A program made the position numbers and the translations under genes. This document shows positions 36-46,400 of a stretch of DNA of 64,000 nt, in pieces (position 1 is the first letter of the stretch; the number at the start of each line of letters is the position of its first letter). The stretch comes from an uncultured Gammaproteobacteria bacterium. Lineage in GTDB: Bacteria; Patescibacteriota; Microgenomatia; UBA8517. Under the pieces are notes generated by a model. The model saw only the letters and a list, made by a program, of their open reading frames with translations, did no database searches and had not been told where the DNA came from. The stretch is taken from assembly GCA_964427735.1 (NCBI GenBank), contig CAYRUS010000002.1:131734-195733 (forward strand). Direction: 5' to 3'.

Positions 36-650
36 ATGGAATGGAATCTCCTGGCTGCAGAAGGAAAGTATGCTAGGCTAGCTGATGCAATGGCATCAAA
101 TTTTTCTGTGCTATTTGGTATTCCTTACTATAAACTAGCAAACAATATTATTCACTCATACTTCATTCCAGCCATAAAAATGCACCGAGAATCAGATTGG
201 ACAAATGTCAGAAAAAACCTTGCATCATTTTATTCATTTCTTCAAAACTCTTCTCCAGTTTTATGTAATTTTAACCCTAATATTGTTGCAGAAGAAGAAA
301 CTGAGATTTGGAGAATTAGCGATTTAAATATTTCAGATAATAAAGTACAAAAATTGCTTGTCCCTAAATATATAGCTTTTTATTCAGAAATATTACAATT
401 ACAACCTGATCGATTACAGAATGCAGCATTTTTCAAGAGCATAGCAACAATTGCTCGGCGAAGGTACAAAAGAATCAACAATAAACCTTACCCAAAAATT
501 ATAAAAATGCCTTATAGAGAAATACAGCTACTAATTATGGAAAAACACACTTTTGATTCCTGCAGAGAGTTAGAAAAAGTTAGTTACGGATATACTTATT
601 CTTTTAGAGAAGCAGAGAAAAAGCTGAAAAATTCGAGTAGATCTACTTAA
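36..650 (+). CDS. hypothetical protein (204 aa), no recognisable motif
   Basis: Intact ORF from the six-frame track; coding-like composition; 4-nt tail-to-tail overlap with the next gene. Confidence 0.4.
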   Translation: MEWNLLAAEGKYARLADAMASNFSVLFGIPYYKLANNIIHSYFIPAIKMHRESDWTNVRKNLASFYSFLQNSSPVLCNFNPNIVAEEETEIWRISDLNISDNKVQKLLVPKYIAFYSEILQLQPDRLQNAAFFKSIATIARRRYKRINNKPYPKIIKMPYREIQLLIMEKHTFDSCRELEKVSYGYTYSFREAEKKLKNSSRST

Positions 651-874
651 TTACCTTCCTGCATTCCCAAGAGCCACAACACAGCTTCTTTTTTGTAGCG
701 GCGGTCACCTCGAGAGTTGATTCTAATTGCCGGAAGCTTTCCTCTTTTCCCCCACCTTTTAATTGTCAAAGGAGAAACTCTTAGAAGCTCAGCAACTTCT
801 GTTACTGTTAGTAAATCTGGAAGATTATCAAGCTTCAATTCTTTTTTCTTTTTCTTTGGTTTAACGTCAGACAT
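647..874 (-). CDS. small standalone HTH DNA-binding protein, MerR/excisionase (HTH_17-like) family, Lys-rich N-terminus
   Basis: 75 aa; 'LTVTEVAELLRVSPLTIKRWGKRGKLPAIRI...RRY' matches the HTH_17/excisionase-type helix-turn-helix signature. The same module recurs at the N-termini of ORFs 5701-7059 and 43499-55456. Confidence 0.6.
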   Translation of the reverse strand: MSDVKPKKKKKELKLDNLPDLLTVTEVAELLRVSPLTIKRWGKRGKLPAIRINSRGDRRYKKEAVLWLLGMQEGN

Positions 875-1099
875 TTGTATTTTAAAGAAAAAACTTTAAA
901 GGATTTATCTTGCTCAAACAATATCAAACGTTAACAAGGTATGTCAAGAGGATGTTAATAATTGGTTGTTGGGTTATAGATATTAGAAGATTGAAGTTAG
1001 AAGCTGGAAGTAAGACTTTAGACACTGGCCATTAGTTTTAGGATTCAGGACTTTGAGTACTCGATAAATTTTATTGTAAGTAAATTAGCTAAACTTAAC

Positions 1100-1879
1100 T
1101 TAATATAGATTGTATACTGACTTGTAAGGTGCTCTTCGCTTGACATCCCAGTCTGCAGATCTTTCAAAAGTCTTCCAACCCTCCACTTTTCTGCTGTCTG
1201 TTAATATGAATGCTGATTCCGGTAGTCCGAAGATTTGTCTAGTATCTTCTCCTAGAAAAACTCCGCCGATCACGTTATTATATAGCCATCTACTCACACC
1301 CAGGCTTAAACTTTCAACATTATAAAAAGTTAACACCACCGGTCTTTTATATGCCCCAAAATTAAGCCTAAGAATTTGTTCTACGACCGGGTAGGCTGCT
1401 GATTCTTCATCATATTCATGATATTGTTTTGTAAATGAAAAGTATGCAGGAGCATCGGGTATTTGCTCTAACCTTTTGAGTAAATATAATCCTAAAGCAA
1501 GCATGCAAAATTTGTCTGGATTTTCTTCGGTGGATGCAAATTTAGTAAGTTTTAAAAACTCTTTATCCGACCACCCTGCTTTGAAACGTGATTGGTATTC
1601 CTTTAAATATTCCAAGGCTGTTTGAGGGGAAGAAAAATTAGATAAATCGACTTCATCAGTAATTGCACCTTTATTTACCGCAGTTTTAATTATTTCATTA
1701 ACAACTTGTTCGTGCTTATCCGGGTTGTAACCTCCAACTAAAAACATTTTAGATGGCATTGGATTTACGAAGGATCCATATAGGTTCTCAACTGAACTGT
1801 TGAAATCTTTTTTCAGCCTGTTTGCTTCCTCAGTGTCTGTTTCAACCTGTTCTTGTCTGTCATATTCTGGCTTTGACAT
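1100..1879 (-). CDS. hypothetical protein (259 aa)
   Basis: Long intact ORF; no confidently recognisable family from sequence alone. Confidence 0.45.
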   Translation of the reverse strand: MSKPEYDRQEQVETDTEEANRLKKDFNSSVENLYGSFVNPMPSKMFLVGGYNPDKHEQVVNEIIKTAVNKGAITDEVDLSNFSSPQTALEYLKEYQSRFKAGWSDKEFLKLTKFASTEENPDKFCMLALGLYLLKRLEQIPDAPAYFSFTKQYHEYDEESAAYPVVEQILRLNFGAYKRPVVLTFYNVESLSLGVSRWLYNNVIGGVFLGEDTRQIFGLPESAFILTDSRKVEGWKTFERSADWDVKRRAPYKSVYNLY

Positions 1880-2554
1880 GGTTATAGGATTATAGTTGAA
1901 AGCATGGAGTTTTTTAATTATTTATAAATTAATATTGCCATTCAAACAACACATTTTAACCATTTAACAGGCACAGAAAGAAATAATATTAGCACTTAAC
2001 CTGCTTTATTGCTAAGTATTTAATTTTCTATCTTTCTTCTCTATTTCGGTCTTTTCTCACTATTTTTTGATTTAATTCTTACCTTATTCTTTCACTACAG
2101 GACGTGCGAACATATAAATGGCTTATTCTTATCCGTTTCCCTCTTGTGTTTATCGGATAAAATCCACTTTAGGCACAATTTACCGACAATCTTTGAAGAA
2201 ATATTTAACGATCTTTTCGTCTTATAATCTTGTTAAGGGTCTAAGATTGTTCCCAGTTTTTCGTTAGAACAACGAATGTTGTTACGGCGGTATTTTGACA
2301 GACTACAGGTTGTATTTCCTCAGAGGTTCGATTTATATATGCCCAATATTGAACACAATTTGTAGACAATTTTTAGGTTTATACTATAAGCACTTATCCT
2401 CAATTTGTCCCCAAACAGTTTTATTTCTGCTGTTTATATTATCGGGAGGTTTGACACCAAAAACACACTAAGTAAAACCGAAGTTTTTACACAGACAAGT
2501 GTGAAATACTAGAATGATTTGATTAAAAACTTGGCGTTATAACAAAACCTATAT

Positions 2555-3010
2555 TTATGAAGTAGTCTGGTTTTGATTCATCTCAGAAGCTAAAATCTCT
2601 CTTAAAGCAATACGTACAAAAAAATCAAAATCTGCAGAGCTATTTTTAAGTCTGCTGTCTTCACCAATAGCCTCCATCATAACCTTTCTTACTTCTAGCC
2701 CTGTTTGGTAAGTATTTTTGTCAAACTCGATTTTGTCTTCATCTGCTTCTGGAAGTTCATCGGTTGTAACTAGCCTCATAATCCTCATCACATTCACTAA
2801 TCCTCTTAATACAGACTCTTCATCTAAACCTAGACCAAACTGAAACTCAGCCTTAAGTGCAAGTACATATTTAGACTTTGATTCTAAATTCTTTGCCCCT
2901 TCTTCCATAATTTCCAAAATTCTTTGTCCTTGCGATTGTACTTCATTAAGCTCTGGTCTATATTTATTTATAAAAACTTCTCTTTCTTGATCGAATCTTT
3001 CTTGTACCAT
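2555..3010 (-). CDS. hypothetical protein (151 aa)
   Basis: Intact ORF immediately downstream of mreB on the same strand. Confidence 0.4.
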   Translation of the reverse strand: MVQERFDQEREVFINKYRPELNEVQSQGQRILEIMEEGAKNLESKSKYVLALKAEFQFGLGLDEESVLRGLVNVMRIMRLVTTDELPEADEDKIEFDKNTYQTGLEVRKVMMEAIGEDSRLKNSSADFDFFVRIALREILASEMNQNQTTS

Positions 3011-3055
3011 CTTATTTGCTCGAATTTTAATCTTGTCAACTTATTAAGTCAACTT

Positions 3056-4063
3056 TTACTTTGTAGTTACACTCCTTCTCCAAAGCTCAATATTCTCAAG
3101 CACTAGTCCGGTCCCCCGAACAACACACAAAAGCGGCTCTTCTGCAACATGGGCAGGAACACCAGTTTCCTGAGTTATGAGCTTATCAAAGTTCCTTAAT
3201 TGGCTTGTACCGCCACTCATAACTATTCCTTTATCTATTATGTCAGCTGCAAGCTCTGGGGGTGTGTCTTCTAATACAGCTTTAACCGCACCGATTATTT
3301 GTAATAGTGTCGCATTTATAGCCTCAGTGATTTCGTGAGAAGATACAACAATACTTCTAGGAAGACCAAAAACCAAGTCCCTACCACTTATTTCTAGTTT
3401 TTCCTCCTTCTCCAAAGGTATTGCAGAGCCTATTTTGATCTTGATAAGCTCGGCAGTCTGATCTCCAACAATTAGATTATGTTCTTTTTTAAGATAGGCT
3501 TGTATTGCACCATCAACCTTATTCCCGGATACACGCACTGATTTATGAACCACTACCCCTCCTAGTGAAATCACTGCCGCCTCTGCACTGCCCCCACCTA
3601 TATCAACAATCATATGCCCTGAGGGAGCAGAAACTGGAATTCCAGCTCCTATTGCAGCAGCTAAAGGCTCATCAATTAAATATGAACGTGCTGCACCAGC
3701 TGATAAAGTAGCCTCGAGTGCAGCTCTTCTTTCTACCTGGGTGCATCCAGCAGGGACACAAACCATTACTTCCGGTTTAATAGGCTGAAACCGTCCGCCT
3801 ACTTTTCCAATAAAATATGAAAGCATAGCCTCGGTTACTTGATAATCTGCAATTACCCCTTCCCTCAAAGGTCTACTGGCAACTAAGCTCTCCGGGGTTC
3901 TGCCAAGCATTTTCTTAGCTTCTTCTCCAACAGCCACTACTTTGCTATCATCTACAGAAATTGCCACAACAGTTGGTTCATCTGCCACAATACCTGTTCC
4001 AGCTACCCAAACAACTGTGTTTGCAGTTCCTAAATCAATTGCAATTCTTTTTCTTAAAGACAT
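3056..4063 (-). CDS. mreB: rod shape-determining actin homologue MreB
   Basis: N-terminal 'IDLGTANTVVWV' phosphate-1 motif, 'MIVDIGGGSAEAAVISLGG' phosphate-2/adenosine motifs, 335 aa; all typical of the MreB/Mbl family. Confidence 0.9.
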   Translation of the reverse strand: MSLRKRIAIDLGTANTVVWVAGTGIVADEPTVVAISVDDSKVVAVGEEAKKMLGRTPESLVASRPLREGVIADYQVTEAMLSYFIGKVGGRFQPIKPEVMVCVPAGCTQVERRAALEATLSAGAARSYLIDEPLAAAIGAGIPVSAPSGHMIVDIGGGSAEAAVISLGGVVVHKSVRVSGNKVDGAIQAYLKKEHNLIVGDQTAELIKIKIGSAIPLEKEEKLEISGRDLVFGLPRSIVVSSHEITEAINATLLQIIGAVKAVLEDTPPELAADIIDKGIVMSGGTSQLRNFDKLITQETGVPAHVAEEPLLCVVRGTGLVLENIELWRRSVTTK

Positions 4064-4250
4064 ATAGAAATTTTAAAATTTTTGGATAAAGTCTATTATA
4101 TTTGTATCACAATGATACACTTACAATGTATTAAGATCTATTATTTGACGACTTTAATTAATCTAACTAGCCATTATATGATTAAAAATAAAACACAACA
4201 AGTGTAACAAAAACTGATTTATCTACATACAAATGTTATAATTATTTGTT

Positions 4251-5486
4251 ATGCGTTCTAAAAACCTTGCCCTTATTTCCACTTTCGCATTAGCCATTCT
4301 TATAGCCTCAGGCGTAGCTCTCTATGCTCGCGGCTATAGATTTAACCTTACTTCAAGAAATATTGAACCAAACGGACATTTGGTAATTAAATCTGTACCA
4401 GACGGTGCAGAAGTTTTTATTGATGGAGAATTAGAATCAGCAACAAATGCCAACTTAAGGCTCTCTCCTCAAACCTATGATGTTGAAGTAAGGAAAGAAG
4501 GATATCACACATGGTCAAAACGTATAACAATAGAAAAGGAAGAAGTTACAGAATACACAGCTCATCTTTTTAGAGCTGCACCATCGCTTTCTGCAATCAC
4601 CTTTGCCGGAAGCATCAACCCTACTCCGTCAAATGACTTTACAAAAATTGCATATATTGTTCCTCCATCTGAAGGCACAAATGTAAATGCAACAGACTTA
4701 AATTCAGGTTTATGGGTGATGGAAACAACAAATCTTCCAATTGGATTTTCTAGAGAACCAAGAAGAATTACAGACGGTGATTTAACTAATGCCACTTTTG
4801 AATGGTCACCAAATGGTCGAGAAATTTTACTAACCACAAGAACAGGTACATTTTTATTGAACTCAGGAGAGTTCACTCCACAAGCCCAACGAATAAATAT
4901 TATAAGCAGATTAGAAGAAATAAAAGAAGAATGGGAACTACAAGAAAATGCACGTATAGAAAGCCTTATGCTTTCACTTCCCCAAGAGTTATCTGAGCTT
5001 CTGTCAAGCAAAGTGGAAAAAGTAATATTTTCACCTGATGAAGAAATGGTTTTGTATAGCGTCAAAGAGGCAGCTACACTCAGAGATAGATATAAAGATC
5101 CTATTCCTGGTTCATCTTCTCAACAACAAGAAAGACAACTTCAGCAAAATGGCGTTTATGTTTATGACATAGAAGAAGATAGGAATTATAAGATTGCAGA
5201 TATTAATACAGATGACTTGGAAGAATGTGCTTTAAATACTCCTGCAATTCAACTTTCCTGCAGCTCTACTATTGCTTGGTTTCCTACAGCTAGACACCTT
5301 GTTGTGTCAGAACCCAACAAAATCAGGATAATTGAATACGACGGAACCAATGATGTTCAAGTTTATGCAGGAAGTTATGTCGCTCCATTTGCATTCCCCA
5401 TTGCAAATATAGACAGGCTAATTGCACTTACCAATTTAGGCTCTGATTCTACAACAGCCAACCTTTATTCAGTGGGGATAAAATAG
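4251..5486 (+). CDS. membrane-anchored PEGA-domain protein
   Basis: N-terminal TM helix, then 'VIKSVPDGAEVFIDGELESATNANLRLSPQTYDVEVRKEGYHTWSKRITI', which matches the PEGA domain pattern. Confidence 0.55.
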   Translation: MRSKNLALISTFALAILIASGVALYARGYRFNLTSRNIEPNGHLVIKSVPDGAEVFIDGELESATNANLRLSPQTYDVEVRKEGYHTWSKRITIEKEEVTEYTAHLFRAAPSLSAITFAGSINPTPSNDFTKIAYIVPPSEGTNVNATDLNSGLWVMETTNLPIGFSREPRRITDGDLTNATFEWSPNGREILLTTRTGTFLLNSGEFTPQAQRINIISRLEEIKEEWELQENARIESLMLSLPQELSELLSSKVEKVIFSPDEEMVLYSVKEAATLRDRYKDPIPGSSSQQQERQLQQNGVYVYDIEEDRNYKIADINTDDLEECALNTPAIQLSCSSTIAWFPTARHLVVSEPNKIRIIEYDGTNDVQVYAGSYVAPFAFPIANIDRLIALTNLGSDSTTANLYSVGIK

Positions 5487-5700
5487 AAGCTAGAGGCTGA
5501 ATTTTAAATGCTTGAAAACTAAAGATAGAATTTGGAAGTTTGTTTCTAGATTTTGGGTATTCGACTTTAGTTATTAAAAACCAGATTTTATCTTTTTACT
5601 CCTCACCGAATTTGGACAAGCAAGAAAGTATATTTAACCATTACACAATCAAATAGATTTAACTTAGATACGCAATAAAGTGAAATATAAAGTAAACAAC

Positions 5701-7059
5701 TTACACCCCAAAATACTTGATAACAAAAGAAGCATAAATATTACTTACCTCTGGCAATGAATCTAATTCAACACACTCATTGTAGGAATTGACATTTTCC
5801 CCCCAAGGTCCATAAACCAAAACAGGTATATTTTGCTCATTAAGCAGTGTTCCTGCGTGTTCAAGAGTATCCACAGATATTTCAACTTGATCAGACCTAG
5901 ATCTTTCCAGAATTTCCTTTAAAATTTTGACTGATTTTTCTTCCCTGGAAATGATATAGCCTTCCCTGCCTGAAAGATACTCAAATTCAAACTTTGAACC
6001 ATTAATTGACTGCTGAGTTGTTAATGCATTCATGATTTCGTCTAATATTTCTCTCGTAATATCTGGAGCAGTAGAAAAATAAAGCTCGGCTTCACACTCA
6101 ATAGGAAAAGAATTTACAGTTTTGTTTGATCTTATTTTTGATACTCTTAACTTGGTACTCTCAGAAAATTCACTATGATTGGTGGGAGGAAATGTAACTT
6201 CGTTTAAATTGTTAATAAAATTTGCCATAGAATTAATGGCATTAAATCCACTTTTAAATATTCCCCCTGGCTTTACCAGAGACGGTTTAACAGTTACTTT
6301 ATACCGATGGAAACCAGTTGTACCATTTATTATTTTGTTTGGGCTTGTATTAAGTCCTAATAAAGCTAAGTCAACAGGCAAACCAGCATCATTTATTTTA
6401 TTAAGTCCATGAAATAATCCTTTATCTTGACCTCCATCAAAAACTATTTCTACTCTAATTTCTTCTTCACTTAGATATTTTTTTAAGGCTAGCACAGCGT
6501 AAACCATAGCTACAATTCCACCTTTAGCTTGCAATGCTCCTCTACCAAACATTTTTCCTTCCTCAATCACACCTTCAAACGGTGGGTAATCCCACTCTAT
6601 TTCATCCCCAGGAGGTTCCGTATACAAAGGACAATTTAGTAATATTCCTCTATCTTTGTAGCCTAAAGTAGCCTTAATGGCGATAACCCGATCTTCTGTA
6701 TAAACAAAACTTCGTACTTTGTGATCAGTAAAAATTCGATTAATTGCTTCGGCTAATTGTGCTTCATTTTGGAAATTATCTGAATGGGTAGGTATAGATA
6801 CAAATCTTTGAAGATCGTCTATCATCTCTCCTTTTTTATTTTCCAAGAACGTTCTTATCTCTGCTTGAATATTTTTTTGGACTCCTTTTCCCAAAAACCT
6901 GTCTAATTCTTCCTGAGAAATTAAGTACCTTCTTCCTATTTTTTCAGGTTCAATATTGCCCCTTTTAATCTCACGCAGAACAGTTCTTTCTGAAACCTTC
7001 AACTTATCCGCAACCTCTTGTACTGTAAGTTTAGCCTGCATTTGTCTTCTAGTGTACAC
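5701..7059 (-). CDS. HTH_17-like DNA-binding domain fused to an M20 (ArgE/DapE/carboxypeptidase G2-type) peptidase-like domain
   Basis: N-terminus 'LTVQEVADKLKVSERTVLREIKRGNIEPEKIGRRYLISQEELDRFL' (HTH). The rest carries an M20 hallmark 'MFGRGALQAKGGIVAMVYAVLAL'. The first metal-binding H-x-D-V-V motif reads 'HSDNF' and the catalytic Glu-Glu region reads 'DGGQD'. Confidence 0.65.
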   Translation of the reverse strand: MYTRRQMQAKLTVQEVADKLKVSERTVLREIKRGNIEPEKIGRRYLISQEELDRFLGKGVQKNIQAEIRTFLENKKGEMIDDLQRFVSIPTHSDNFQNEAQLAEAINRIFTDHKVRSFVYTEDRVIAIKATLGYKDRGILLNCPLYTEPPGDEIEWDYPPFEGVIEEGKMFGRGALQAKGGIVAMVYAVLALKKYLSEEEIRVEIVFDGGQDKGLFHGLNKINDAGLPVDLALLGLNTSPNKIINGTTGFHRYKVTVKPSLVKPGGIFKSGFNAINSMANFINNLNEVTFPPTNHSEFSESTKLRVSKIRSNKTVNSFPIECEAELYFSTAPDITREILDEIMNALTTQQSINGSKFEFEYLSGREGYIISREEKSVKILKEILERSRSDQVEISVDTLEHAGTLLNEQNIPVLVYGPWGENVNSYNECVELDSLPEVSNIYASFVIKYFGV

Positions 7060-7830
7060 TAGTGTCCTGTATTAATGCAATATTACTATATTTTTAAGTA
7101 AGGCTGTGGATAACTAGTGTATTAATTGGGTAAGACAAGGTTATGGGATGTAGATCATTAGCCTGGATTTGGTTATTTTAAAGATCCTGGGTAATTGTTA
7201 GGTTATATACTAATAAATCTTTATTTTTATTGAACCTTCATTAAATAAACTATCTTTTATGCTAAGTATTTAATTGCAAATACGAAGTTTAGTATTTTCC
7301 GTGCCTACTGCTTTATTAAAGCGATTTTAAATAGGCTAAAATTTAATAGATATACAAATAGTCATTTAAAAGCTATTGGGTATGGAAAAAGATGTGATAT
7401 AAAACCAAAATGCACTAAAAATAAGAAAGGGATCGTTGGATATTGTATTTTGAACACCGAAAACTAGGAGTTGGATGTTAGATACTAAATTTCAATCTCA
7501 AAATTCAAAACCTCAATAATTACTTCCAAACTTTTTAGACTTGGAATGAAGTGAGTTAGATTATTGCCTACAAAAAATTTCATCTCGACAAGTTGAGCGA
7601 ATACTTATTAAACATCGTGACTGTCCGCACTTGCTACGGCAAGCAAGTTGAGCGATATAACATGAGCAGAGCGGGAAGCTATGAAATTTTTTCTAGGCTG
7701 CCCTTCTTTGATACTTTCCTGGGCATGCAAGAAAGTATATTTAACATAGTATCAAAAGTATTTTATGAAGATGAATAGAATATTATTTCTTTTTTAACTC
7801 TCTAACAAAAAAGAAGTATTTGAATTAAAC

Positions 7831-10830
7831 TTACAGTCCAAAATACCAGTCATAGAAGGAGAATCCGTTCTTGCTTGGAGCAGAAGTTCCCACACCACTT
7901 CTGTAATTCGTACCATAAATATGATCCACTAGGTAAGGAAGACCGGAATCATCACCTTCTGCCTTCATTGGTTTACCATCTGAGAAATGACCTTCGTGAA
8001 GCCACTGTACGGATCTTCTTAGAGCCTGGTTTTGCCATTGGAATGCAGGCATTCCTTTTCTGTGCAAGAACCATGCCTGTGCCAAAGCACCTTGTAGAGC
8101 TTCCCAAACGTAATTTTCCTTGCATGGAGGCCAGCTTACTGTTTGACAACCATGCTCACCTTGTCTTCTTTGATCATCTGGCAATACTCCATCAACATTT
8201 CTTTGAGCACCATTTATGGAAATCTTTGCTCCCTGCGGATTGATTCCAACAGGCTGACTTGGATTTGCCTGCCAACCTAAATTACCATAGCTGAATCCTG
8301 AATATAGACTTCTATTTCCTAGCCATCCATGGAATACATTTGCTGCTCTTTGTAGATCTGTATTGTCCCCTAGGAAAATAGCAGCAGCAATTCTACTTGC
8401 TCCTGCGTGTGTTCCCCAATTATTGGGTCTATCTTCATGTGTACTAATAAGTGTTTTACCGTCTAAAGTTTTTGTTCGGACTGAAGAAACCCAGTTTCTG
8501 AATTTTGTTTCATCACTACTTGAGTTAAAACCTACCAAATCAGCAGCAATTATATAGCCTGCTAAGTTTCTACCTAAAGCTAAGGTTCTTCCGCCTGCTT
8601 CAGTTCCAATTGCATCCATTACATAACTTCTAGCTTTACTACAATGACTAGCTGAGCTTTGTCTTACACACACAAGTGCTGCTGCAACAGCGACTGCATC
8701 AGCCTGATTATCTTGATTACTAATATCAGGTGATGTATTTTGATTTGCCCAAGACACGATATTGTTCCAAGCTGATCCGCTTGTTGGCAAAGACATAATT
8801 TCGTTTCTTGATATTAATATTCCAGCACTACTTGAAGGTGGCGGTATTGGTGTACCTGTAGAAGTTGGTGAGGGAATAGCAGTGGCAGGTTTAGCTGTAG
8901 GAGTGGCTGTAGCAGGTTTTGGTGTTGCGGTCGCTGGTTTTGGTGTTGGCGTAGATGTTGCAGGTTTTGCTGTTGGGGTTGTAGGTGTTCCACCCACTTT
9001 TCCATAATTTGTTAACCAGATCACATAATCTAGTCCATCTACTTTCTCATTTCTATCAAAATCTCCTTTTGATGCGCCTTGGCTAGTTGTTGTGTTGTAG
9101 TTTACTAGCCAAACTACATAATCAAGTCCATCTACTTTTTTATCACCGTTTGCATCTCCAGATAGATCACCGGATGATGGTGTTGCTGTAGGATTAGTTC
9201 CTCCTGAAGTTTGTATAAGTAACTGTGGTGCATTTGAGTTTTCTTTTGATTCAACAGAGAAAGTATTTCTAGTACCTGTGTTGGTAATTCCTATTGACAA
9301 TTGTCCACCTACAGCTTGTTGTATTTGACTTGAGTTTAGGTTTATCTCTACTGGTACACCTGTTTGAGTATTTGTACTAATACTTCCTATTTGGGTTCCC
9401 ATGGAAGGTTTATTATTCCAAGCTATATTTCCCTCATTCCAATTATTGTTGGTTACTAAGTGGACTGTTTTATCTACGCTTCTGTCTAAAGCGGGAGTTA
9501 GTTTTAATTTTGCACTTATTATATTTCCTACTATTCCACTTAAATTGAATTTAATGTATGTTTCTCTGATATTTGATAAGGAATAATCTGAAGCTAGTAT
9601 TAAATTGTCACTCCCATAATTTTTACTTTGATTGCCTTCGCTTACCATCGCATCATCTGTTGGAGTAATGACATACCATCCACCACCGACGGGTGATGGT
9701 ATTGATGTGGAAGGAGAAGTAGTAGGATTTGGAGTTGCTGTTCCAGGAGGAGGTGTGGGTATTGGGCTAGAACTCGTTCCACAGCTCAAACCAGTAGCTT
9801 GTAAAATCTTATTCCAAGCTACTCCCGCTACACTTGTGTCATTCTGGATTGCGACAAAAATACCTCCTGGGTATGCGGGAGAATTTTGTTGTGTTGATGC
9901 TATTCCATCAGTATTGTAAACATAATTTCCATTTGGAAGCCTTAGTTTTATTTTTCCTAAATGCTGCCATGTTCTTCTATTGAAGATTTCATAATCATTA
10001 CCAGTAGAAGAGCTGTCAATTTGATCAGAAATAATTATAAATCCTTCTCCATTATCACCGACTCCGTTAGCGGGGCATGAATAAACCCAAATTCCTTCCT
10101 CATCTGAGTTAAAAATACTACTATCTCCAAATTTGTTTGCACCATTTCTTGTATGCACAGATCCATCAGGATTATATGCATAAACTCCACTTCTACCACC
10201 TTCGTCTGGTATATATATTATTTGGTCGAAATTATCAGCCCACATAGTCTCCAAACCTCTTACTGGTTTAAACGTTCCTAGATTTGCACCTGTACTTGGA
10301 TTTTGTATCCTGACCTCTGTGTTATATGAAGTATAGAGTCTTTTTTGTCCGTTTGAAGTTTTCAGGAGTGTTAAATTAGGTTCATTACTACTAATAGAAC
10401 TACCTGTATTAATAGTTTTTACAAAACCTAGGTTTGGTAAATTAAATACACAGATTTTATCTGTGAATGCAACAGTTACATATAGAATGTCATCTTCCTG
10501 ATCTACCCAAACGCCATTTGTACCACCAGAGATACATGAATGCTTTAATGCAGCCTGTTGGCTGGAAGATGAACTATATGGGTATTTCCATACTTCAACC
10601 AATGAGGAACCTTTGGCGGTTACAAACATCAATGATTGAGTAGGATCTGGTGCTTCCCAAAATGCGATACTGTCAACATTGTTTCCATCACCGTTAAGAT
10701 TAAAATCTACTGTTATTTCTTTTGTTCCAAAAGGATTAAAAGCAGCATCAACACGAGGCGAATTATACAAAGCAAAAACTAGTATTAAAGCTAATATAGA
10801 TATTGTTAGTGCAGCTTTTAATTTTTGCAT
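7831..10830 (-). CDS. secreted multidomain protein: signal peptide, beta-propeller (phytase-like) domain, Pro/Thr linkers, beta-sandwich carbohydrate-binding-like domain, dockerin, C-terminal polysaccharide-lyase (alginate-lyase/heparinase-like) domain
   Basis: N-terminal signal peptide 'MQKLKAALTISILALILVFALYNSP'. Two dockerin type-I Ca-binding repeats: 'DANGDKKVDGLDYVVWLVNY' and 'DFDRNEKVDGLDYVIWLTNY'. PT-rich linkers 'TPTPKPATATPKPATATPTAKPAT'. Motif 'NWNEGNIAWNNKP' in the middle domain. C-terminal 'NNWGTHAGASRIAAAIF...WLHEGHF' is reminiscent of alginate-lyase-type alpha/alpha toroids. Confidence 0.7.
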   Translation of the reverse strand: MQKLKAALTISILALILVFALYNSPRVDAAFNPFGTKEITVDFNLNGDGNNVDSIAFWEAPDPTQSLMFVTAKGSSLVEVWKYPYSSSSSQQAALKHSCISGGTNGVWVDQEDDILYVTVAFTDKICVFNLPNLGFVKTINTGSSISSNEPNLTLLKTSNGQKRLYTSYNTEVRIQNPSTGANLGTFKPVRGLETMWADNFDQIIYIPDEGGRSGVYAYNPDGSVHTRNGANKFGDSSIFNSDEEGIWVYSCPANGVGDNGEGFIIISDQIDSSSTGNDYEIFNRRTWQHLGKIKLRLPNGNYVYNTDGIASTQQNSPAYPGGIFVAIQNDTSVAGVAWNKILQATGLSCGTSSSPIPTPPPGTATPNPTTSPSTSIPSPVGGGWYVITPTDDAMVSEGNQSKNYGSDNLILASDYSLSNIRETYIKFNLSGIVGNIISAKLKLTPALDRSVDKTVHLVTNNNWNEGNIAWNNKPSMGTQIGSISTNTQTGVPVEINLNSSQIQQAVGGQLSIGITNTGTRNTFSVESKENSNAPQLLIQTSGGTNPTATPSSGDLSGDANGDKKVDGLDYVVWLVNYNTTTSQGASKGDFDRNEKVDGLDYVIWLTNYGKVGGTPTTPTAKPATSTPTPKPATATPKPATATPTAKPATAIPSPTSTGTPIPPPSSSAGILISRNEIMSLPTSGSAWNNIVSWANQNTSPDISNQDNQADAVAVAAALVCVRQSSASHCSKARSYVMDAIGTEAGGRTLALGRNLAGYIIAADLVGFNSSSDETKFRNWVSSVRTKTLDGKTLISTHEDRPNNWGTHAGASRIAAAIFLGDNTDLQRAANVFHGWLGNRSLYSGFSYGNLGWQANPSQPVGINPQGAKISINGAQRNVDGVLPDDQRRQGEHGCQTVSWPPCKENYVWEALQGALAQAWFLHRKGMPAFQWQNQALRRSVQWLHEGHFSDGKPMKAEGDDSGLPYLVDHIYGTNYRSGVGTSAPSKNGFSFYDWYFGL

Positions 10831-10983
10831 ATTGGCAGATCTCTAATTATTTTACACTAACTTGTTTTCACACCCTCTGTCAATAGGTTTTCGGTATCAT
10901 TAATCAATTTAAAACATTGAAATAACATTAAAGCAAATGGAAGATTAAAATTAAACAAACTAAATGTTATAATTAGTGTATAT

Positions 10984-11055: not shown

Positions 11056-11135
11056 CTAAAACTGTTTGCTAATATTTTCTTAATTTATATAATAAAACAA
11101 TTGCAATCAATATTACTATCGGTTATAATAGGGCT

Positions 11136-12346: not shown

Positions 12347-12386
12347 AGTTTTATATTCAATCTAATTTTTAAGATATTCAGGATTT

Positions 12387-34873: not shown

Positions 34874-37393
<2,520 letters not shown>

Positions 37394-37412
37394 GATATTT
37401 ACTTATATAGAT

Positions 37413-38870: not shown

Positions 38871-38882
38871 AAATATATCTTT

Positions 38883-39347: not shown

Positions 39348-40005
39348 CTCTCTTAAATTCCTCTACTGATTCATTTACAATTTTTTCGTGATCTTTTTTA
39401 TTGATCTCTTCTGATATTATTTGCATAATAATTTTTTGACTTAGTTGAGAAACTGTTTTCTCAAATTCCTGAATTCGTTGTTTTTTGTAAGATTGAATTT
39501 CTTTATTAGCTTCAACTTGAAGTCTTTCAAATAATTGTTTAGTTTCCTTGGCAGCATTTGATATCTCTTGTTTAAAAATTTTAACACCTTCATCTGAACT
39601 ATCAGCCATAGATTGCTGCAACTGACTTGATACATTTTGAACCGCTTTTATAACTTCTGTTTTAATTTGAGATAGTTCATTTTTATACTCATCTAAATAA
39701 CTTTCTGTTGCTTGACTGACAAGAGCATTTATTTGCTCTGATTCTCCCCGAACTAACTTTGATGCATCGGTAAGCATTTGTTGAGACTTTTGATGTGCCT
39801 CATTAATCAACCTATCTGACTCAATTCGTGCTTGATTTATAATATCTCTAGCCTTTTCTTCAGCCTGATTATTTTCATCTCTTAGCTTATTACTTTGATC
39901 ATTTAATTTACCTTGAAGCTTAAAGTACTGAATTAAAACCAAAGCCAATAAAATTCCAAATACAGAAACCAAGAGTATAAATAGGTAGATTATTGTAGAT
40001 TGCAT
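39328..40005 (-). CDS. atpF: F-type ATP synthase subunit b
   Basis: Single N-terminal TM 'IIYLFILLVSVFGILLALVLI', then a long charged coiled-coil; position at the head of the F1 genes. Confidence 0.65.
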   Translation of the reverse strand: MQSTIIYLFILLVSVFGILLALVLIQYFKLQGKLNDQSNKLRDENNQAEEKARDIINQARIESDRLINEAHQKSQQMLTDASKLVRGESEQINALVSQATESYLDEYKNELSQIKTEVIKAVQNVSSQLQQSMADSSDEGVKIFKQEISNAAKETKQLFERLQVEANKEIQSYKKQRIQEFEKTVSQLSQKIIMQIISEEINKKDHEKIVNESVEEFKRDVLTNI

Positions 40006-40085
40006 GTATTTCTATTTAATAAGCTCTATTGAATAAATGCAAGTAGAGTTGATACTTAGTCTAAAAGTAATTTATATTGCTTTAA

Positions 40086-41774
40086 TCAAGGTTTAAGCAA
40101 ATATCTTCCGGTCATTTCTTTGGGTATTTCTAAGTTCATAAGACCTAAAATTGTAGGTGCTACATCAGCTAATGAGGCTCCGTCTAAATGCATTTTCTTT
40201 CCTTGAAAATTTTTGTTAATTAGAATCAAAGGTACAGGATTTCCAGAGTGATCAGTGCTTACACTTCCTTTACTTGTAGTATAAAAAAATGTAGAGCTAG
40301 GAAAAGTTAACATTTCTTCTGCATTACCATGATCAGCAGTAACAATAACCGTTCCGCCTACCTCTAACACGGCGTCAACCATTTGCTTAAGATACTTATC
40401 AATAGCTTCTATAGCTATTATTGCCTTGTCAAGAATACCAGAATGAGCAACCATATCAGCATTAGCAATATTTAATACAAAAAAATGATATTTATCTCTA
40501 GAAAGCTCTTTCTTAAACGCAGATGTTAACTTGGGAAGTGACATTTCAGGAGCTTTATCATAAGTAGATACCTTTGGTGACTGAACAATATGCACGTCCT
40601 CCCCTTCAACTTTTTCTTCCCTTAATCCATCAAAGTAGTATGTAACGAATCTTTCTTTTTCAGATTCAGCCATATGCATTTGATTGAGAGCTTTTGCAGA
40701 CAATACCTGGCTTAGGGAATTTCCAACTTTTTCAGGACCAAATGCTACAGCTGATACAGGCAGACCTTTTTGATATTCGGTCATGGTAACAAAAAATAAA
40801 TTTTGTACTACCTTTTCTCTTTTAAAGGTAGTACCAACAGGAACGTCATCTTTTCTTTGGGCAGTATCAGGGTCATAACCCCAATCCACATTTTTAATAT
40901 TTTCAAAATCAGGACGAACAAAAGCCATTGTTAATTGCCTTGGTCTATCAATCCTAAAGTTATAAAAAATAACAGCGTCATTATGCTCTATAAGAGCTAG
41001 AGGGACTGAATCATCTTTAATAATTACAGTAGGTTCAATAAATTCATCAGTAATTCCACGGCTGTAGGAAGATTTAATTGCATCTATTGCTGATTTAGCT
41101 TGAACTCCTTTACCTTGCACTAATGCCTGGTAAGTTCTTTGAGTTCTATTCCATCTCCTATCTCGATCCATTGCATAGTATCTACCGTGTAAAGAAGCAA
41201 TTTTGCCAACGCCAATATTTTTTAAAATACTTTCTATATTCTCGATTACTTCTGCTCCTTGTTTAGGAGGAGAATCTCTTCCATCCGTAAACAAATGAAG
41301 ATAAACATTTTGCAAATCTTGCCTTTTGCAAAATTGAATCAAAGCTTTTAAATGTTCAACAGAAGAATGAACTTGACCTGTACCAATAAGACCCATTATG
41401 TGTAGTTTTGAGTTGTTTTTTCTGACGTGACTAGCAGCAGAAACAAAAGCTCTATTATCAAAAAAATATCCCTTTTCAATTGCAATATTGATTCGTTTCA
41501 ATTCCTGATATATCACCCTCCCTGCTCCGAGAGTAAGGTGGCCAACTTCTGTATTACCAACTTCATTAGCAGGCAAACCCACTGATTCTCCTGAAGCTAT
41601 TATTTTTCCAGATGGAAAATTTGACATATAAAAATCAATGTTTGGTGTTCTCGCTTTCTCTACCGCGTTTCCTTGAGATGGTGGTGCTATTCCAAATCCA
41701 TCAAGGATAACTAAAACCATGGGTTTAATATTTTTTTCTTTTTTTTTACTGAAAAATGGCAGCTTAAGTATCAT
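40086..41774 (-). CDS. gpmI: 2,3-bisphosphoglycerate-independent phosphoglycerate mutase
   Basis: 'MVLVILDGFGIAP' N-terminal motif and 'ADHGNAE' C-terminal metal site are typical of iPGM. True start is probably the internal Met ('MVLVILDG') about 54 nt downstream of the track ORF start. Confidence 0.9.
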   Translation of the reverse strand: MILKLPFFSKKKEKNIKPMVLVILDGFGIAPPSQGNAVEKARTPNIDFYMSNFPSGKIIASGESVGLPANEVGNTEVGHLTLGAGRVIYQELKRINIAIEKGYFFDNRAFVSAASHVRKNNSKLHIMGLIGTGQVHSSVEHLKALIQFCKRQDLQNVYLHLFTDGRDSPPKQGAEVIENIESILKNIGVGKIASLHGRYYAMDRDRRWNRTQRTYQALVQGKGVQAKSAIDAIKSSYSRGITDEFIEPTVIIKDDSVPLALIEHNDAVIFYNFRIDRPRQLTMAFVRPDFENIKNVDWGYDPDTAQRKDDVPVGTTFKREKVVQNLFFVTMTEYQKGLPVSAVAFGPEKVGNSLSQVLSAKALNQMHMAESEKERFVTYYFDGLREEKVEGEDVHIVQSPKVSTYDKAPEMSLPKLTSAFKKELSRDKYHFFVLNIANADMVAHSGILDKAIIAIEAIDKYLKQMVDAVLEVGGTVIVTADHGNAEEMLTFPSSTFFYTTSKGSVSTDHSGNPVPLILINKNFQGKKMHLDGASLADVAPTILGLMNLEIPKEMTGRYLLKP

Positions 41775-41794
41775 TTTTATATATTATGTTCTAT

Positions 41795-42559
41795 TTAGAG
41801 TATTAAAATTAAATAGGCGATTCCAAGTCCTACTAAAATTATCACAAGTGTTAAGCCTACACTTAAAATTAGATTTGCTTGGATTAATCTTTTAGCCATT
41901 GGATTTCTCCCTATTGCTTCAAGTCCTGTACGCGTAGCCTTTCCAAAGTAAGTCATACCTAAACCAACAGATATTATAACCATTGCTGCAGCAAATAAAT
42001 ACCTTAAGTAACTAATCGGCTCTAGAAGAGGTGTCGCAAATCCTTGCCTAAGCTGATTAATTAGATTAGAACGAGCAGATGTGATTCCAACTGCAGGATG
42101 TATATTTATCGCAATTTGTATTGTTCCCACTTCTTCTCCTGAGAAAGGATCCAGGGCAATTCCTAATATATACCCATCATTTGTGGCAAGTTGAGCAACT
42201 CCAGGAGTTTCTGACGTTGTAATATAGTCCCCCTCTTCAATTTCCCCATTTGAAGCTGTAATACGTACATTTGCTATCCCACTAGAAATTACCGCATATC
42301 CATCTTCAATCTCACTGTCCTCAACTGCAATAACAGGATTAAGTGATATTACGCCAGTCATTGAAGGATCATAAGCTCTATTGCATTTCCTTAAACTATT
42401 GTCACTTAAACAAATAATATCTCCATCATTTATATCCTCATCAGAAATTGGCATGTATAGTCCTAATCCGGATGAAGTAAACTGTGCTTCTGATATACTC
42501 GGTATCATCAAGGCTGCTAAAAAAATTGAGATGGTAAAGAAAATATAGGCAGTTCTCAT
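41795..42559 (-). CDS. secreted/membrane protein (signal peptide + C-terminal TM helices), unknown function
   Basis: N-terminal 'MRTAYIFFTISIFLAALMIPSISEA' signal; C-terminal hydrophobic segments. Confidence 0.45.
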   Translation of the reverse strand: MRTAYIFFTISIFLAALMIPSISEAQFTSSGLGLYMPISDEDINDGDIICLSDNSLRKCNRAYDPSMTGVISLNPVIAVEDSEIEDGYAVISSGIANVRITASNGEIEEGDYITTSETPGVAQLATNDGYILGIALDPFSGEEVGTIQIAINIHPAVGITSARSNLINQLRQGFATPLLEPISYLRYLFAAAMVIISVGLGMTYFGKATRTGLEAIGRNPMAKRLIQANLILSVGLTLVIILVGLGIAYLILIL

Positions 42560-43498
42560 AAGTAAATGTCTAAATTATTGTAGCATGTTGCCAAGATTGT
42601 TACTTGTATTTTTGTACCTTTTAATAAATCGCCGTGCAACAATGTCCTAGAGTCATTGTTTTCAACTAATTAATATTAGTCTAAATTGGACATACCGACC
42701 TCCTCCAGTATTAATTGTCCAACTTTTACAATAATTATCAAATAGATATAGTAATCATATTTCCTTCTAAATATTGATTTATAGGTTGTACTTTGAGTAT
42801 AACTAAGCACCAAATCTAATAAAATTTCTTAAATTTCTTCGAAATATTAGCTATGTAAAGCTTTTATATCCTAAATAATATTCTAATTCTCAAATTGGAG
42901 AGAAATATAAGTGGATATGTTTTTTCTGCAAGTAATGCGTTATTTTACGAGCCTTATTTGTCCGTAATTTGTAAATAGATATAATTTCTGCATTCTATTT
43001 ATGGAAAATAATAGATATTTGTATTGATTTTGTTGCGGTTTAATATGCGTATATTTTATTTCCGCACGGTATTTGTTCGTTTATCATGCCTATTTTTAGT
43101 AAATTGATGTCGCTAATGCTTATGTGACAATTGTATGATTAAATTTCTCACTTATTTCTGCAAATATGGCAAATTGCGGAAATATACCTTCGCTTATCAT
43201 CTTATGGCATTGAACACGGATGCCAATAATTTGACTGATATATACCGCATGACGTGCGTTTATTATGCCTAAATTTCATTTTTACCTTTAGTTGCAAGAT
43301 TAAAACTTATTTAGCAAGAAGTCTTCAAGTATTTACCTAACTAAAATTTCAACCTAGCCTGATTAAGGTTTTAAGTAGAAGCATCTTCCAACGTATTAAT
43401 CTAAAAATTACCACAATAATGCCCCATAAATAAATATAAAACGATATTGACAACAACAGCCAAAACTGTATTAATGATATTGGACATTACAAACTTAA

Positions 43499-46400
43499 AT
43501 GTCCATTTTTAATACCTGTCCAATGCCCAACAGTACAAAAGTCTATCTATCAATACACGAAGCTGCTGATTACTTGAATGTATCACGCAAAACATTAAGG
43601 CGATGGGAAAAGACTAAAGTGTTAATTCCCTTGCGCACTTCAGGTGGCCATAGAAGATATACAAAAGACCAGCTAGATAAGTTTAAAAAGATTAAAGGTA
43701 GAAAAAGAATAACAAGCAAAGTAAAGACTAAAGTATTCGAAAACAAGACTAGCCAAGCGGTACAGTTACCTACTTTGAGTAATACTAACAAAACTCAAGA
43801 AAGAACGTCAGAAGATAGTAATATTAATCTTCTTGACACAAATATAAATAATAGCCCAAAAGACGAATATATAGATTACAATGACAACCATGAACACACT
43901 ATCAAATATCATAAGGATCACATTCCTATAATCGAAACAGAAACACCATCTCAAATCACCACCGAAAATCTAATTTTGCCTCAGAATAATATCCAGACTA
44001 ATTCCAAACCTAAAAATAACGCAAGTAAATTGAGATCTGTTTCCTACTTCTTTGTGTTTCTACTCTTGTTTGGTGGATTTGTATACTCTGTAAAAGCACT
44101 CCCTGGAGTGGATCTAAATATATCAAAAGGTATCAAGTCTAGTATGGCAGGCTCATCAAACAGTGGGAATATCCAATCAGCCTTTGAAAGGGTCCTTGCT
44201 GCAACCTCTTTTAATCTTTCCTTATTACGCGTAAATGTAAACTCAATTTTCGAAGAAGACATTGCAATTAATGGTGAGAATATAACTACATCATCAGATA
44301 CAATCAATTTATTCAATGAGAACGCTACAACAATTTCCTTTGGAGGCGAAGCTGAAGCAATAAACATAGGAGCTCCCACAGGAACTACAGTTATTAATAA
44401 TGCATTAAATGTAGGATTAGATTTAGCTGTTAATGGTAATTTGTCTGTAGTAGGTATTGCTACTCTAAACACGCTTACTTTAGGAGCAGACACTATTACA
44501 GATATTACTGGAGATGGATTAATTGTGGTTGATGGTGCTCTTACTTCTACATTTGGATCGTCAATAGATTCTACTGATATAACAGATGGAACTATCTCTT
44601 CAGTAGATCTTAATATATCAAACTCTCCCTCTGATGGATTAATCCTAGCCTATGATGAATCCACCGGAGGTTTTACCTGGGTAGTAGACCAAACCGGGGC
44701 TGGAGGAAGCTTGTTCACAGACGCTGGCACAGTAACATATTTAACCGATACTACTGATGACTTGGTTATCGGCGGGACAGTTGCACTCTCCTCCAGTAAA
44801 GTATCAATAGATGGAGATAGTGACCAAATACAATTCTTAGTTCAAGGAAATTCAACCCAAACTACAAACCTTGCAGTTTTCGAACAATCAGATGGAACAG
44901 ACGTATTAACAATTGACAACTCAGGAAACTTAATAACCGCAGGAAGCATTTCAGCGGCCACCAATGAAACTATTAACGGAATTGATATTAGTGCTGGTAC
45001 TATTTCTGATGTTGTTAATTTACTCATTAATGCTGGCGGGGATTTATCAATTGGAGGAATTGGTTTAAGTGATACTGGAGCTAATAATCTAACATCAGGT
45101 GCAAGCCTAATTGGTGTTTTTGACGAATTCACAAATTCTAACTCCACTACACTCCAAGCTGTATTAAATGACCTTGATGCGGCAATAGGATCTGGTTCAT
45201 CCAAGTGGACACAAGATGTTGGATTTATTTATCTCACTAACTCGACAGACTCTATTACAATTGGAGGAAACACAGAGCTTGGAAAACTTGCTATAGCAGG
45301 TGATGCTGACGAATTGCAGTTTGTTGTTAGAGGAAATGCAACCCAAACAGCAAACCTAGCTACCTTTGAAAACTCCTCAGGGGATGATCTTTTGGCAGTT
45401 ACAAGTATGGGAGATCTTCTATCGGGATTTACACAGTTAGATGGAAGTTCAACTGCAAACGGTGCAGGTGCAGCCTCAAAAACTTTGGTCTTACAAGCAG
45501 GTGGTGGCGCCAATTTTGATATTGGAAACTATGTAAGAATTGATAGTACAAACTGCGACGGTGCCGCTGACACTTGTTATTCAAAAATTAGAGGTAAATC
45601 TGGCGACACACTTACACTAAGCAATTCCCTAACCTGGGCAAATGGTAGTGTTGTTTTAGAATATCATATACCCGAAGTCGGAGGAACTAACCTAGCTGAT
45701 ACTCTTGATAATAGATATGGTCTAGGTTATTTCATCAGCGGTGTAACCACAGGAAATGCCTCAACTTTCTATGGGGATGGCGAAATAACAACCTCAAGTG
45801 TTACTAATTTGAATTCTAAAAGCTTATCCATTCGTACAGGAAACTCAGTTGTTTCAGGAAACTCCGGAGATATAATAATTGATACTGGATCTGCAGAAGG
45901 TACAGCAGGTACAATTTCTATTGGAGAAAATAACACAAGCGGTATCACAATAGGTCATAGTGGTATAAATACTACCATATCAGGAAATCTTATTTTCAAC
46001 AGCCAAACAATTAATAACTTTACCGGCAATGGTCTAACAACATCCTCAGATGCTCTAACGATTCAACTAACAAATGCAGCAGACGAACTATCTTCTACAA
46101 CAAGCTCAGGGTCTGGTTTGGAAGTATTATCATCTGGTTTGACCCTTCTCCAAGGATGCGATAACGGTCAAGTTCTAAAGTGGAATGAATCAAATAATTC
46201 ATGGGAATGTGCAAATGACACAGGAGCCTCAAGTGCTGTAATAAATGTAGAAAACAATGATGTAGAAGTTGGTACAGACGTAGACACATTGGACTTTAGC
46301 ACAGATTTTATTCTTACAGCTTCTCCTTCTAACGAGGTCAACATATCCATAGCGGATGATGTTATAAACTTTACGGAAATTAGTGATTCGTTAACACTAG

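Follow-up and report, generated by a model that had tools for sequence, protein, structure and literature searches.

Regulators with an enzyme-derived sensor are known from MocR/GabR (aminotransferase-like), NrtR (Nudix) and BirA, and in phage fibres the S74 domain goes with trimerisation and self-cleavage. The membrane-bound one-component regulators of the ToxR-like kind include ToxR, CadC, TcpP and PsaE (PMC5430869, PMC11484849), and BldC of Streptomyces (6AMK/6AMA) is a 68-amino acid (aa) MerR-like winged helix-turn-helix (wHTH) which binds AATT-containing direct repeats as head-to-tail multimers (PMC5859096). The architectures described here extend two of these known kinds, the membrane-bound one-component regulators and the regulators with enzyme-derived sensors. 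They are encoded, together with a small BldC-like protein, in a window of 64,000 nucleotides (the whole stretch of DNA analysed; GC content about 0.34) from a Woesebacteria-like Microgenomates lineage of the Candidate Phyla Radiation (CPR)/Patescibacteria, in which three genes carry an HTH_17-like domain:

647-874, minus strand: small helix-turn-helix (HTH) protein of 75 aa, with the wHTH at aa 21-69 after a Lys-rich N-terminal tail.
5701-7059, minus strand: protein combining HTH_17 with a degenerate M20 (DapE/ArgE-like) part, here called HTH-M20; Pfam HTH_17, Peptidase_M20 and M20_dimer.
43499-55456, plus strand: giant, predicted membrane-anchored fibre protein, a 3985-aa open reading frame (ORF) with the HTH at aa 16-66 and Peptidase_S74 at aa 3499-3553.

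To judge from their sequences, the three HTHs are old, separately diverged members of the HTH_17/MerR superfamily, each residing in a conserved core gene family of its own. Taken jointly, and with moderate confidence, we read the small protein as a regulator or nucleoid-associated protein, HTH-M20 as a one-component regulator and the giant protein as a fibre with a DNA-binding head acting at its own operator.

The first-pass annotation had reported the same HTH_17-like module on three unrelated proteins. The presence of the three domains is confirmed by Pfam, by TIGR01764 and by a six-frame scan, and "unrelated" is correct as regards the fusion partners. The HTH_17 (PF12728) scores of 43.3 bits (75-aa protein), 48.6 bits (HTH-M20) and 37.5 bits (giant protein) lie above the gathering score of 27, and all three domains pass the threshold of 28.8 bits for TIGR01764, the "excisionase family DNA-binding domain" (37.0, 43.8 and 38.8 bits). 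A hidden Markov model (HMM) built from all three HTH families and run against the six frames of the whole window gave just three matches (E values of 3e-28, 3e-20 and 2e-19), with no fourth HTH_17-like domain below E ~1. The literal motif given in the annotation fits approximately, the departure being the HTH-M20 copy, whose wing (KIG----RRY) is shorter by four residues and whose recognition helix lacks the Trp. Its gene boundaries are in part revised, as the 75-aa and HTH-M20 genes lie on the minus strand and later ATG starts are probable for both fused genes. Nor are the domains classical MerR proteins: the MerR_1 matches span profile positions 2-50 of 69 only, and a MerR-type coiled-coil stretch is lacking, the giant protein being disordered after the wHTH and HTH-M20 running into the M20 fold.

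According to the same annotation, the module had been reused, either as a single HTH recently duplicated in this lineage or as a moving N-terminal cassette grafted onto three genes. All three copies do match the same Pfam and TIGRFAM models and are located within 44 kb, but protein identity among the cores is 35-44% (BLASTP of the small versus the giant copy returned no alignment) and coding-DNA identity 47-49% in codon register, the only DNA similarity among the three coding stretches being chance words of at most 12 nt. Identity of the HTH core within each family is 97% (small protein, 120 clusters), 55% (HTH-M20) and 58% (giant protein), compared to 30-37% between families, and the core of the 75-aa protein is 52% identical to that of the actinobacterial BldC, above its identity to either neighbour in the window. 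In addition, the HTH-M20 wing differs in length, each fusion is retained at 35-60% identity over many genomes with conserved synteny, no integrase or insertion sequence domain occurs among the gene neighbours scanned (part of the window's genes), and no repeats or mobile-element genes were seen adjoining the three HTH genes. Mutual similarity was the yardstick that the annotation had itself set, and because the three domains are no closer to each other than to an HTH_17 protein of another phylum, the proposal is refuted on its own terms; we regard a shared recent origin as highly improbable. Practically negligible is the probability that the fusions are artefacts, in which a small HTH gene has been merged with a downstream gene because a stop codon was missed or the sequencing or assembly went wrong. 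This is a general possibility in metagenome-assembled genomes (MAGs), but independent assemblies of different origin, numbering dozens to hundreds, show the same uninterrupted architectures. The further notion of large extracytoplasmic or enzyme-like domains joined to a putative DNA-binding head holds well, as both fusions are conserved architectures. Likewise, the recognition helix that was to be sought by structural modelling is present in the AlphaFold2 models of both fused HTHs, each of which forms an intact winged helix.

The most unusual of the three is the giant protein, in which the following elements are distinguished:

43544-43696, plus strand: predicted cytoplasmic BldC-type wHTH (aa 16-66); KTLRRWE forms the recognition helix and RTSGGHRRY the wing.
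43697-44017, plus strand: low-complexity linker of about 107 aa, predicted to be disordered, with AlphaFold2 confidence (pLDDT) below 50 at aa 71-113 and 131-169 and low across aa 71-169; the homologues differ in both its length and its sequence.
44018-44095, plus strand: single predicted transmembrane (TM) helix and type-II signal anchor (aa 174-199), helical in AlphaFold2, with the hydrophobic 19-mer SVSYFFVFLLLFGGFVYSV.
53993-54157, plus strand: Peptidase_S74 intramolecular-chaperone domain (aa 3499-3553), scoring 52.6 bits where the gathering score is 22.

The ORF comprises 3985 aa from ATG 43499 and 3977 aa from ATG 43523 (M9), and translation probably starts at the latter since the homologues begin MPN... 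The ORF-boundary starts of both fused genes (43499 and 7059) fall inside conserved upstream cis-elements, and both reassignments are based on alignment. Besides HTH_17, the head matches MerR_1 (39.7 bits) and MerR (34.1 bits), and among solved structures it is closest to BldC (6AMK, E 7e-6). In an AlphaFold2 model of the first 300 aa, pLDDT is 92-95 over aa 16-66, and a helix at aa 56-72 is confident to about aa 66. All eight residues by which BldC contacts DNA (K26, T27, R30, W31, K33, H46, R47 and R48) are present and invariant in 11 homologues, and in the 11-member family K31-E37, R46, T47 and G49-Y54 are likewise invariant. BldC is thus the nearest solved relative of the giant head, as it is of the 75-aa protein, although the head differs in being fused to a TM helix and a fibre, in belonging to another phylum and in scoring 35.8 bits with the curated BldC model NF033787, below the cut-off of 77.

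The charges flanking the TM helix favour a predicted N-in orientation, since Lys plus Arg average 3.0 on the N-terminal compared to 2.1 on the C-terminal side across the family (the N-side count is the higher one in 46 proteins, the C-side count in 14). The predicted topology, in which a flexible linker and one TM helix connect an N-terminal cytoplasmic winged helix with a C-terminal domain outside the cytoplasm, matches that of the ToxR-like regulators. It differs from these in that the head has a MerR/HTH_17 and not an OmpR/PhoB fold (only MerR and HTH_17 models match, not Trans_reg_C), in that the ectodomain of the family is a repetitive fibre of 1,000 to >5,000 aa with S74, compared to a compact sensor of 150-250 aa, and in that the protein is from CPR bacteria, its function being predicted from sequence.

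The ectodomain, about 3,780 aa long, consists of Thr/Gly/Ser-rich repeats (14/12/11%). Its S74 domain opens with S3499-D-A-R-L-K3504 (SDARLK), which we take to be the Ser...Lys autocleavage motif at the domain start, the dyad spacing being assumed; the 487 aa from that Ser to the C-terminus are presumably more than in phage chaperone domains. By analogy, the fibre probably trimerises through this domain. The resemblance to phage tail fibres and endosialidases includes the S74 match above threshold, the SDARLK start and the long Ser/Thr/Gly-rich repetitive region before it, and one homologue is even labelled "virion structural protein". Unlike a phage tail-fibre gene, the giant gene is chromosomal and syntenic with an ATP synthase operon, and its product carries a predicted cytoplasmic HTH and membrane anchor. 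Three near-identical segments of about 50 aa (NELQNLFSTI(S/A)VSGQ(S/N)NVVADSITDTLTLAAGSNISITTD...) start at aa 1125, 1604 and 1998 (46871-49650), within longer duplicated blocks, which indicates a recent internal duplication of the fibre shaft. The GC content is 0.39-0.43 across the fibre-coding part of the gene and 0.32-0.36 elsewhere in the window.

With the first 600 aa as query, the HTH, TM and fibre architecture was found again in 10 close homologues. At E<=1e-3, an exhaustive search by HMMER with aa 1-75 as query matched 2,717 cluster representatives, and among the best 146, which were examined, 86 have one or more HTHs followed by a hydrophobic helix within 160 aa (one HTH in 15, two in tandem in 69, more in 2). 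Seventeen of these 86 are 1,047-5,310 aa long. A relative of 3356 aa (P0244) shows the order two HTHs, TM helix and, near the C-terminus, S74. The two tandem heads of most membrane-anchored relatives recall a BldC head-to-tail dimer made covalent. As many as four to eight tandem BldC-type HTHs occur per polypeptide in P0163, P0167, P0171, P0176 and P0189, the first of these having eight and then a TM helix. When one genome per species was scanned, relatives of the giant N-terminus turned up at no fewer than 425 loci. Eighty of these were kept, retrieved by the peptide patterns VSxKTLRRWE and RT[SA]GGHRRY, and the HTH residues are consequently invariant among them by construction; 77 of the 80 encode an HTH and then a TM helix, and most run on as a long ORF, many for more than 3,300 aa to the end of the locus. 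In the literature searched, nothing relevant was found on HTH_17/BldC-like domains in CPR, on membrane-anchored MerR-type regulators or on giant Microgenomates proteins, which is no proof of novelty.

A gene-specific sequence element accompanies the giant genes. Enrichment of k-mers in the upstream regions identified the words TTGGACA and TGTCCAA, which in the window are arranged as follows:

43480-43506, 17-43 nt upstream of ATG 43523: operator-like palindrome TTGGACAttacaaacttaaaTGTCCAt, of the TTGGACA-N11-14-TGTCCAA type.
43517-43523: third half-site, with the sequence TGTCCAA, which overlaps ATG 43523, the probable start codon.
42686-42722: distal half-site pair TTGGACA-N23-TGTCCAA, situated within the intergenic region of 939 bp at a distance of 127-163 bp upstream of a divergent 254-aa gene.

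The typical arrangement is TTGGACA-N11-14-TGTCCAA with its 3' end 4-65 nt ahead of the giant start codon. The exact pattern has 18 matches in 1.22 Mb compared to about 0.1 in shuffled sequences; 14 of the 18 are positioned between -150 and +30 of giant-gene starts and the other four within 650 bp upstream. Distal second sites occur 400-650 bp upstream in four loci (L004, L059, L071 and L077). The single word TTGGACA is not enriched across the window (13 matches, 10.4 expected). The half-site GGACA(A/T)TT resembles GGACAATT within the BldC whiI-opt site CAATTCGGACAATTCGGACA (PMC5859096). Comparison of the half-site variants TTAGACA and TTGGACA with the recognition helix was uninformative, the loci having been retrieved with helix-fixing patterns. 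A plain -35 box was rejected as the identity of TTGGACA, because the -35 box of the small-HTH promoters in this lineage reads TTGACA and because the motif comes in inverted pairs. An RNA structure found no support either, since the RNAalifold consensus of 36 sequences amounts to -1.1 kcal/mol and shows a single compensatory change; G-to-A changes in one arm of the palindrome often have no counterpart in the other. A generic promoter scan of 42560-43560 did no better than on shuffled sequences, and Rfam and tRNA scans of the intergenic regions 7060-7830 and 42560-43498 found nothing.

The second fusion, HTH-M20, is a soluble counterpart in which the wHTH precedes an enzyme fold. Its features are:

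6892-7029, minus strand: wHTH of the short-wing type (aa 11-56; HTH_17, 48.6 bits).
5722-6612, minus strand: M20 catalytic and dimerisation domains (aa 150-446), the di-zinc site being destroyed in alignment with canonical M20 enzymes.
7042-7066, minus strand: conserved cis-element GACACTAGTGTACACTAGAAGACAA abutting ATG 7041, in which (G)ACA occurs three times at a spacing of about 10 bp and which contains the palindrome ACACTAGTGT.
7105-7113, minus strand: perfect DnaA-box-like 9-mer TTATCCACA, upstream of HTH-M20 and beside an ACACTAG half-element.

Translation probably starts at ATG 7041 (M7), giving 446 aa, and not at GTG 7059 (452 aa), because the annotated GTG falls within the conserved upstream element and the homologues align from M7. 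The combination of HTH and M20 occurs again in 22 further protein clusters (35-42% identity) and 15 metagenome loci. The AlphaFold2 model (mean pLDDT 90) places the wHTH at aa 10-56, with blocks of 86-93 over aa 11-50 and the elements b10-12, a13-20, a24-32, b39-41, b44-48 and a49-56; after a flexible break at aa 59-61 the model continues into an M20 fold that is complete with both domains. Foldseek recovered DapE and ArgE (E ~1e-28 to 1e-29) as well as CPG2 for this model, as expected of a two-domain M20 fold. In the head, five of the BldC contact residues are kept (T27, R30, K33, R47 and R48), R stands at K26, and W31 and H46 are missing.

The M20 domain has lost zinc ligands of its active site. 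We take the di-zinc ligands to be H67, D100, E135, E163 and H349 and the general base to be E134 (Haemophilus influenzae DapE numbering, with positions fixed by alignment). Across the 23 fusion proteins H67 is replaced by P in 23 of 23, E163 by Y in all (by L in the window copy) and E135 by Q in 21. The window copy is changed at D69Y, D100Q, E134Q, E135D and H349N, so that all six ligand and base positions tested are lost, and its score with TIGR01910 is 140.8 bits, below the cut-off of 217.6. By these substitutions the M20 domain of HTH-M20 is classed as a pseudoenzyme, and with its zinc ligands lost it therefore most likely serves as a dimerisation and ligand-sensing module and not as an enzyme. 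As in MocR/GabR, NrtR and BirA, an N-terminal HTH is combined with a full-length enzyme fold that would provide dimerisation, and the catalytic residues are degenerate as in several of these. The partner differs, being an M20 (DapE/ArgE-like) metallopeptidase fold.

The upstream element of HTH-M20 has the consensus GACAsTAnnGTACAmTrG..GACA. The sequence GACANTANNGTAC has 15 matches in 2.0 Mb of fetched DNA compared to about one in shuffled sequences, and 13 of the 15 are directly upstream of HTH-M20 genes (12 distinct loci). The 9-mer TTATCCACA is found 50-100 bp upstream of HTH-M20 in five of 13 loci (the window, L001, L003, L088 and L090), where 0.1 would be expected, and shows no enrichment in the window as a whole; it possibly reflects control by DnaA, or a second operator. 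HTH-M20 would accordingly be a soluble one-component regulator, with a short-wing wHTH tethered to a DapE/ArgE-like domain of lost zinc ligands whose dimerisation part would bring two heads together. We infer that it most likely binds the GACA-repeat element at its own start codon and thereby regulates its own expression. One may speculate that its ligand is a cell-envelope metabolite, owing to the DapE-like origin and the mreB/PEGA neighbourhood. No description of such a regulator was found in the literature searched, an absence which is no proof of novelty.

The 75-aa protein differs from the two fused proteins in being a bare wHTH, lacking an effector or oligomerisation domain, and in this it is like BldC. 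Its nearest solved structure is BldC (6AMK, E 7e-9), and it matches MerR_1 with 41.1 bits. NF033787 (HTH_BldC) is its top NCBIfam match, yet the score of 45.4 bits is below the cut-off of 77, and it is best classed as BldC-like, outside the curated BldC family. Six of the eight DNA-contact residues are retained (T27, R30, W31, K33, R47 and R48), the differences from BldC being L at K26 and D at H46. Its homologues form more than 6,600 clusters (at 90% identity), and for the best 120, with lengths of 70-104 aa, identity is mostly 80-98% and never below 72%. This conservation suggests an essential, radiation-wide DNA-binding protein which is apparently unstudied. The gene is preceded by a promoter-like sequence, its function being judged from the consensus only:

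918-947, minus strand: consensus sigma-70-type promoter of the small HTH gene, TTGACA-N18-TATTGT, with TG before the -10 part.

The arrangement TTGACA-N17/18-TG-n-TAnnnT is located upstream of the small HTH gene in seven of seven loci (the window and six others). An excisionase context was not found, the neighbours of the 75-aa gene either carrying no Pfam domains or being housekeeping genes (MreB), and in the absence of an integrase among the neighbours scanned nothing ties the protein to excision. It is most likely a general DNA-binding regulator or a nucleoid-associated protein.

Two other roles may be considered for the fused heads. One is that the giant head is an architectural DNA anchor comparable to RacA. 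It would hold the chromosome at the base of the fibre, or would hold its own locus there while the protein is being inserted co-translationally, the palindrome being a docking site or the site of another regulator such as the 75-aa BldC-like protein. RacA and Xis are architectural proteins of the same fold, RacA models are among the weak matches, the head is predicted to be permanently tethered to the membrane, and a 12-kb gene for a membrane protein would presumably be membrane-coupled during expression anyway. The palindrome is, on the other hand, situated at the gene start, a promoter- or operator-like place, and is gene-specific within 1.22 Mb, which regulation fits at least equally well. 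We consider the anchor unlikely as an account of the head, and the anchor and regulator roles are compatible with each other. More doubtful still is the view that both fused HTHs are protein-protein modules that do not bind DNA, with the upstream elements being promoters or RNA structures of the 5' untranslated region. A precedent is RodZ, in which the HTH of an HTH-TM-ectodomain protein binds MreB. In the giant protein, too, a predicted cytoplasmic HTH at the N-terminus is followed by a single TM helix and an external domain, the window encodes MreB, whose gene is conserved beside HTH-M20, the window palindrome can form a hairpin, and TACAAT in the M20 element resembles a -10 box. However, the RodZ HTH is of the Xre type and shows no conservation of DNA contacts, whereas the giant head is of the MerR/HTH_17 type with the BldC contact residues invariant in its family, Pfam matches to Xre or to the RodZ C-terminal domain are lacking, and the giant gene lies 39 kb from mreB in another syntenic block. 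Furthermore, the covariation and arm changes reported above do not favour an RNA structure, and the real -35 box of the lineage is TTGACA.

Several observations weigh against a DNA-binding head that acts at its own operator. Even with one mismatch allowed per arm, only 34 of 77 loci show the palindrome near the start; it is an inverted repeat, whereas BldC binds direct repeats head-to-tail; and the window transcript does fold as a hairpin at this position (-13.4 kcal/mol, z -2.95). It could be bound by another factor, for instance the 75-aa protein, or could partly be a promoter, in which case the leaders would be short or absent given the distance of 4-65 nt to the ATG. The invariance of the contact residues is independently supported by the 11-sequence family, the 80 loci being pattern-selected. 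For HTH-M20, other members of the family retain D100, E134 and H349, and residual metal binding or activity is possible there. The taxonomic spread is not fully certain either, as many sequences carry "uncultured Gammaproteobacteria" titles.

Our preferred reading remains that of three old wHTH families with separate roles, in which the giant would be anchored in the membrane in type-II orientation, its BldC-type wHTH lying in the cytoplasm and being joined, through some 100 aa of disordered linker and a single TM helix, to an extracellular fibre of about 3,780 aa. The head would bind the palindrome TTGGACA-N11-14-TGTCCAA at its own promoter or gene start. In cells a few hundred nanometres across, a flexible linker of 100 aa should let the tethered head reach the nucleoid, and oligomerisation of the fibre, or the tandem heads of the relatives, would supply the multivalency used by BldC-type domains. 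Fibre synthesis would in this way be subject to feedback, which the state of the fibre might modulate. A bolder version, which we put forward tentatively and with more doubt than conviction, is that the giant surface fibres of Microgenomates, probably trimeric, are themselves transcription factors, relaying their state of assembly, load or host contact through the TM helix to one or two BldC-type heads on a palindromic operator at the start of their own gene.

The gene neighbourhoods are conserved for all three families. The block of HTH-M20, a convergent PEGA-domain protein, MreB, further genes and a 71-75-aa HTH protein is found in at least six independent loci in addition to window positions 647-7059. 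The giant homologues are divergent from a block of ATP synthase, iPGM and a 258-aa gene, with further giant genes (LamG, beta-helix) after them, and window positions 35133-61295 show the same arrangement of ATP synthase and iPGM opposite the giant gene. Directly after the giant gene follows a 1971-aa protein (55380-61295, plus strand) with six LamG-type (Laminin_G_3) domains and DUF2341, whose likely start MSNKMKKLK... overlaps the giant stop, and thereafter a Wzy_C/O-antigen-ligase-like membrane protein with TPR repeats (61434-63503, plus strand). Together with the giant gene these look like a surface-structure cluster, conserved in one other locus (L005). Upstream of HTH-M20, at 7831-10830 on the minus strand, a secreted protein of 999 aa contains CBM96 and an alginate-lyase-like domain, Pro/Thr-rich linkers and, by eye, two dockerin-like repeats (GDANGDKKVDGLDYVVW and GDFDRNEKVDGLDYVIW), and is possibly a polysaccharide-degrading surface enzyme. 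At the AT-rich intergenic region of 939 bp (42560-43498) the orientation of the genes switches: between about 19.3 and 42.6 kb the minus strand carries essentially all genes (further upstream the strands are mixed), and beyond the intergenic region all genes are on the plus strand. The steady fall of the cumulative GC skew ends near this region, which also holds several short repeated motifs spaced about 113-115 bp apart. No DnaA boxes were found at the strand switch at about 42.5-43.5 kb, and a replication origin is not claimed there. The names of the homologues and titles of the loci refer to Woesebacteria, Levybacteria, Amesbacteria, Microgenomates and "Patescibacteria group". Many third-party annotation (TPA) MAGs among loci L008-L081 that hold a Microgenomates-type giant gene are titled "uncultured Gammaproteobacteria" or "Pseudomonadales", and these titles are probably mislabels, given the gene content and the GC content of 0.32-0.49.

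The labels "excisionase" and "succinyl-diaminopimelate desuccinylase" mislead for these families, and both fused genes probably have wrong start calls. The HTH-M20 family is an apparently undescribed enzyme-derived regulator, syntenic with mreB, and the 75-aa protein is among the most conserved small DNA-binding proteins of the CPR radiation. BldC-type domains thus reach well beyond the development of Streptomyces. The palindrome hypothesis is directly testable with the 70-aa domain and a 27-bp oligonucleotide (TTGGACATTACAAACTTAAATGTCCAT). CPR/Patescibacteria are thought to depend on attachment to host cells, and the sensing and regulation of this attachment are largely obscure. The class of proteins with a putative DNA-binding head and a giant fibre, widespread in hundreds of species-level genomes, is a candidate for contact-coupled gene control. 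If the giant fibres act as proposed, they would provide the reduced episymbiotic cells with a one-protein circuit for contact sensing and feedback, and would physically tie the gene locus to the site in the membrane at which the fibre is inserted.

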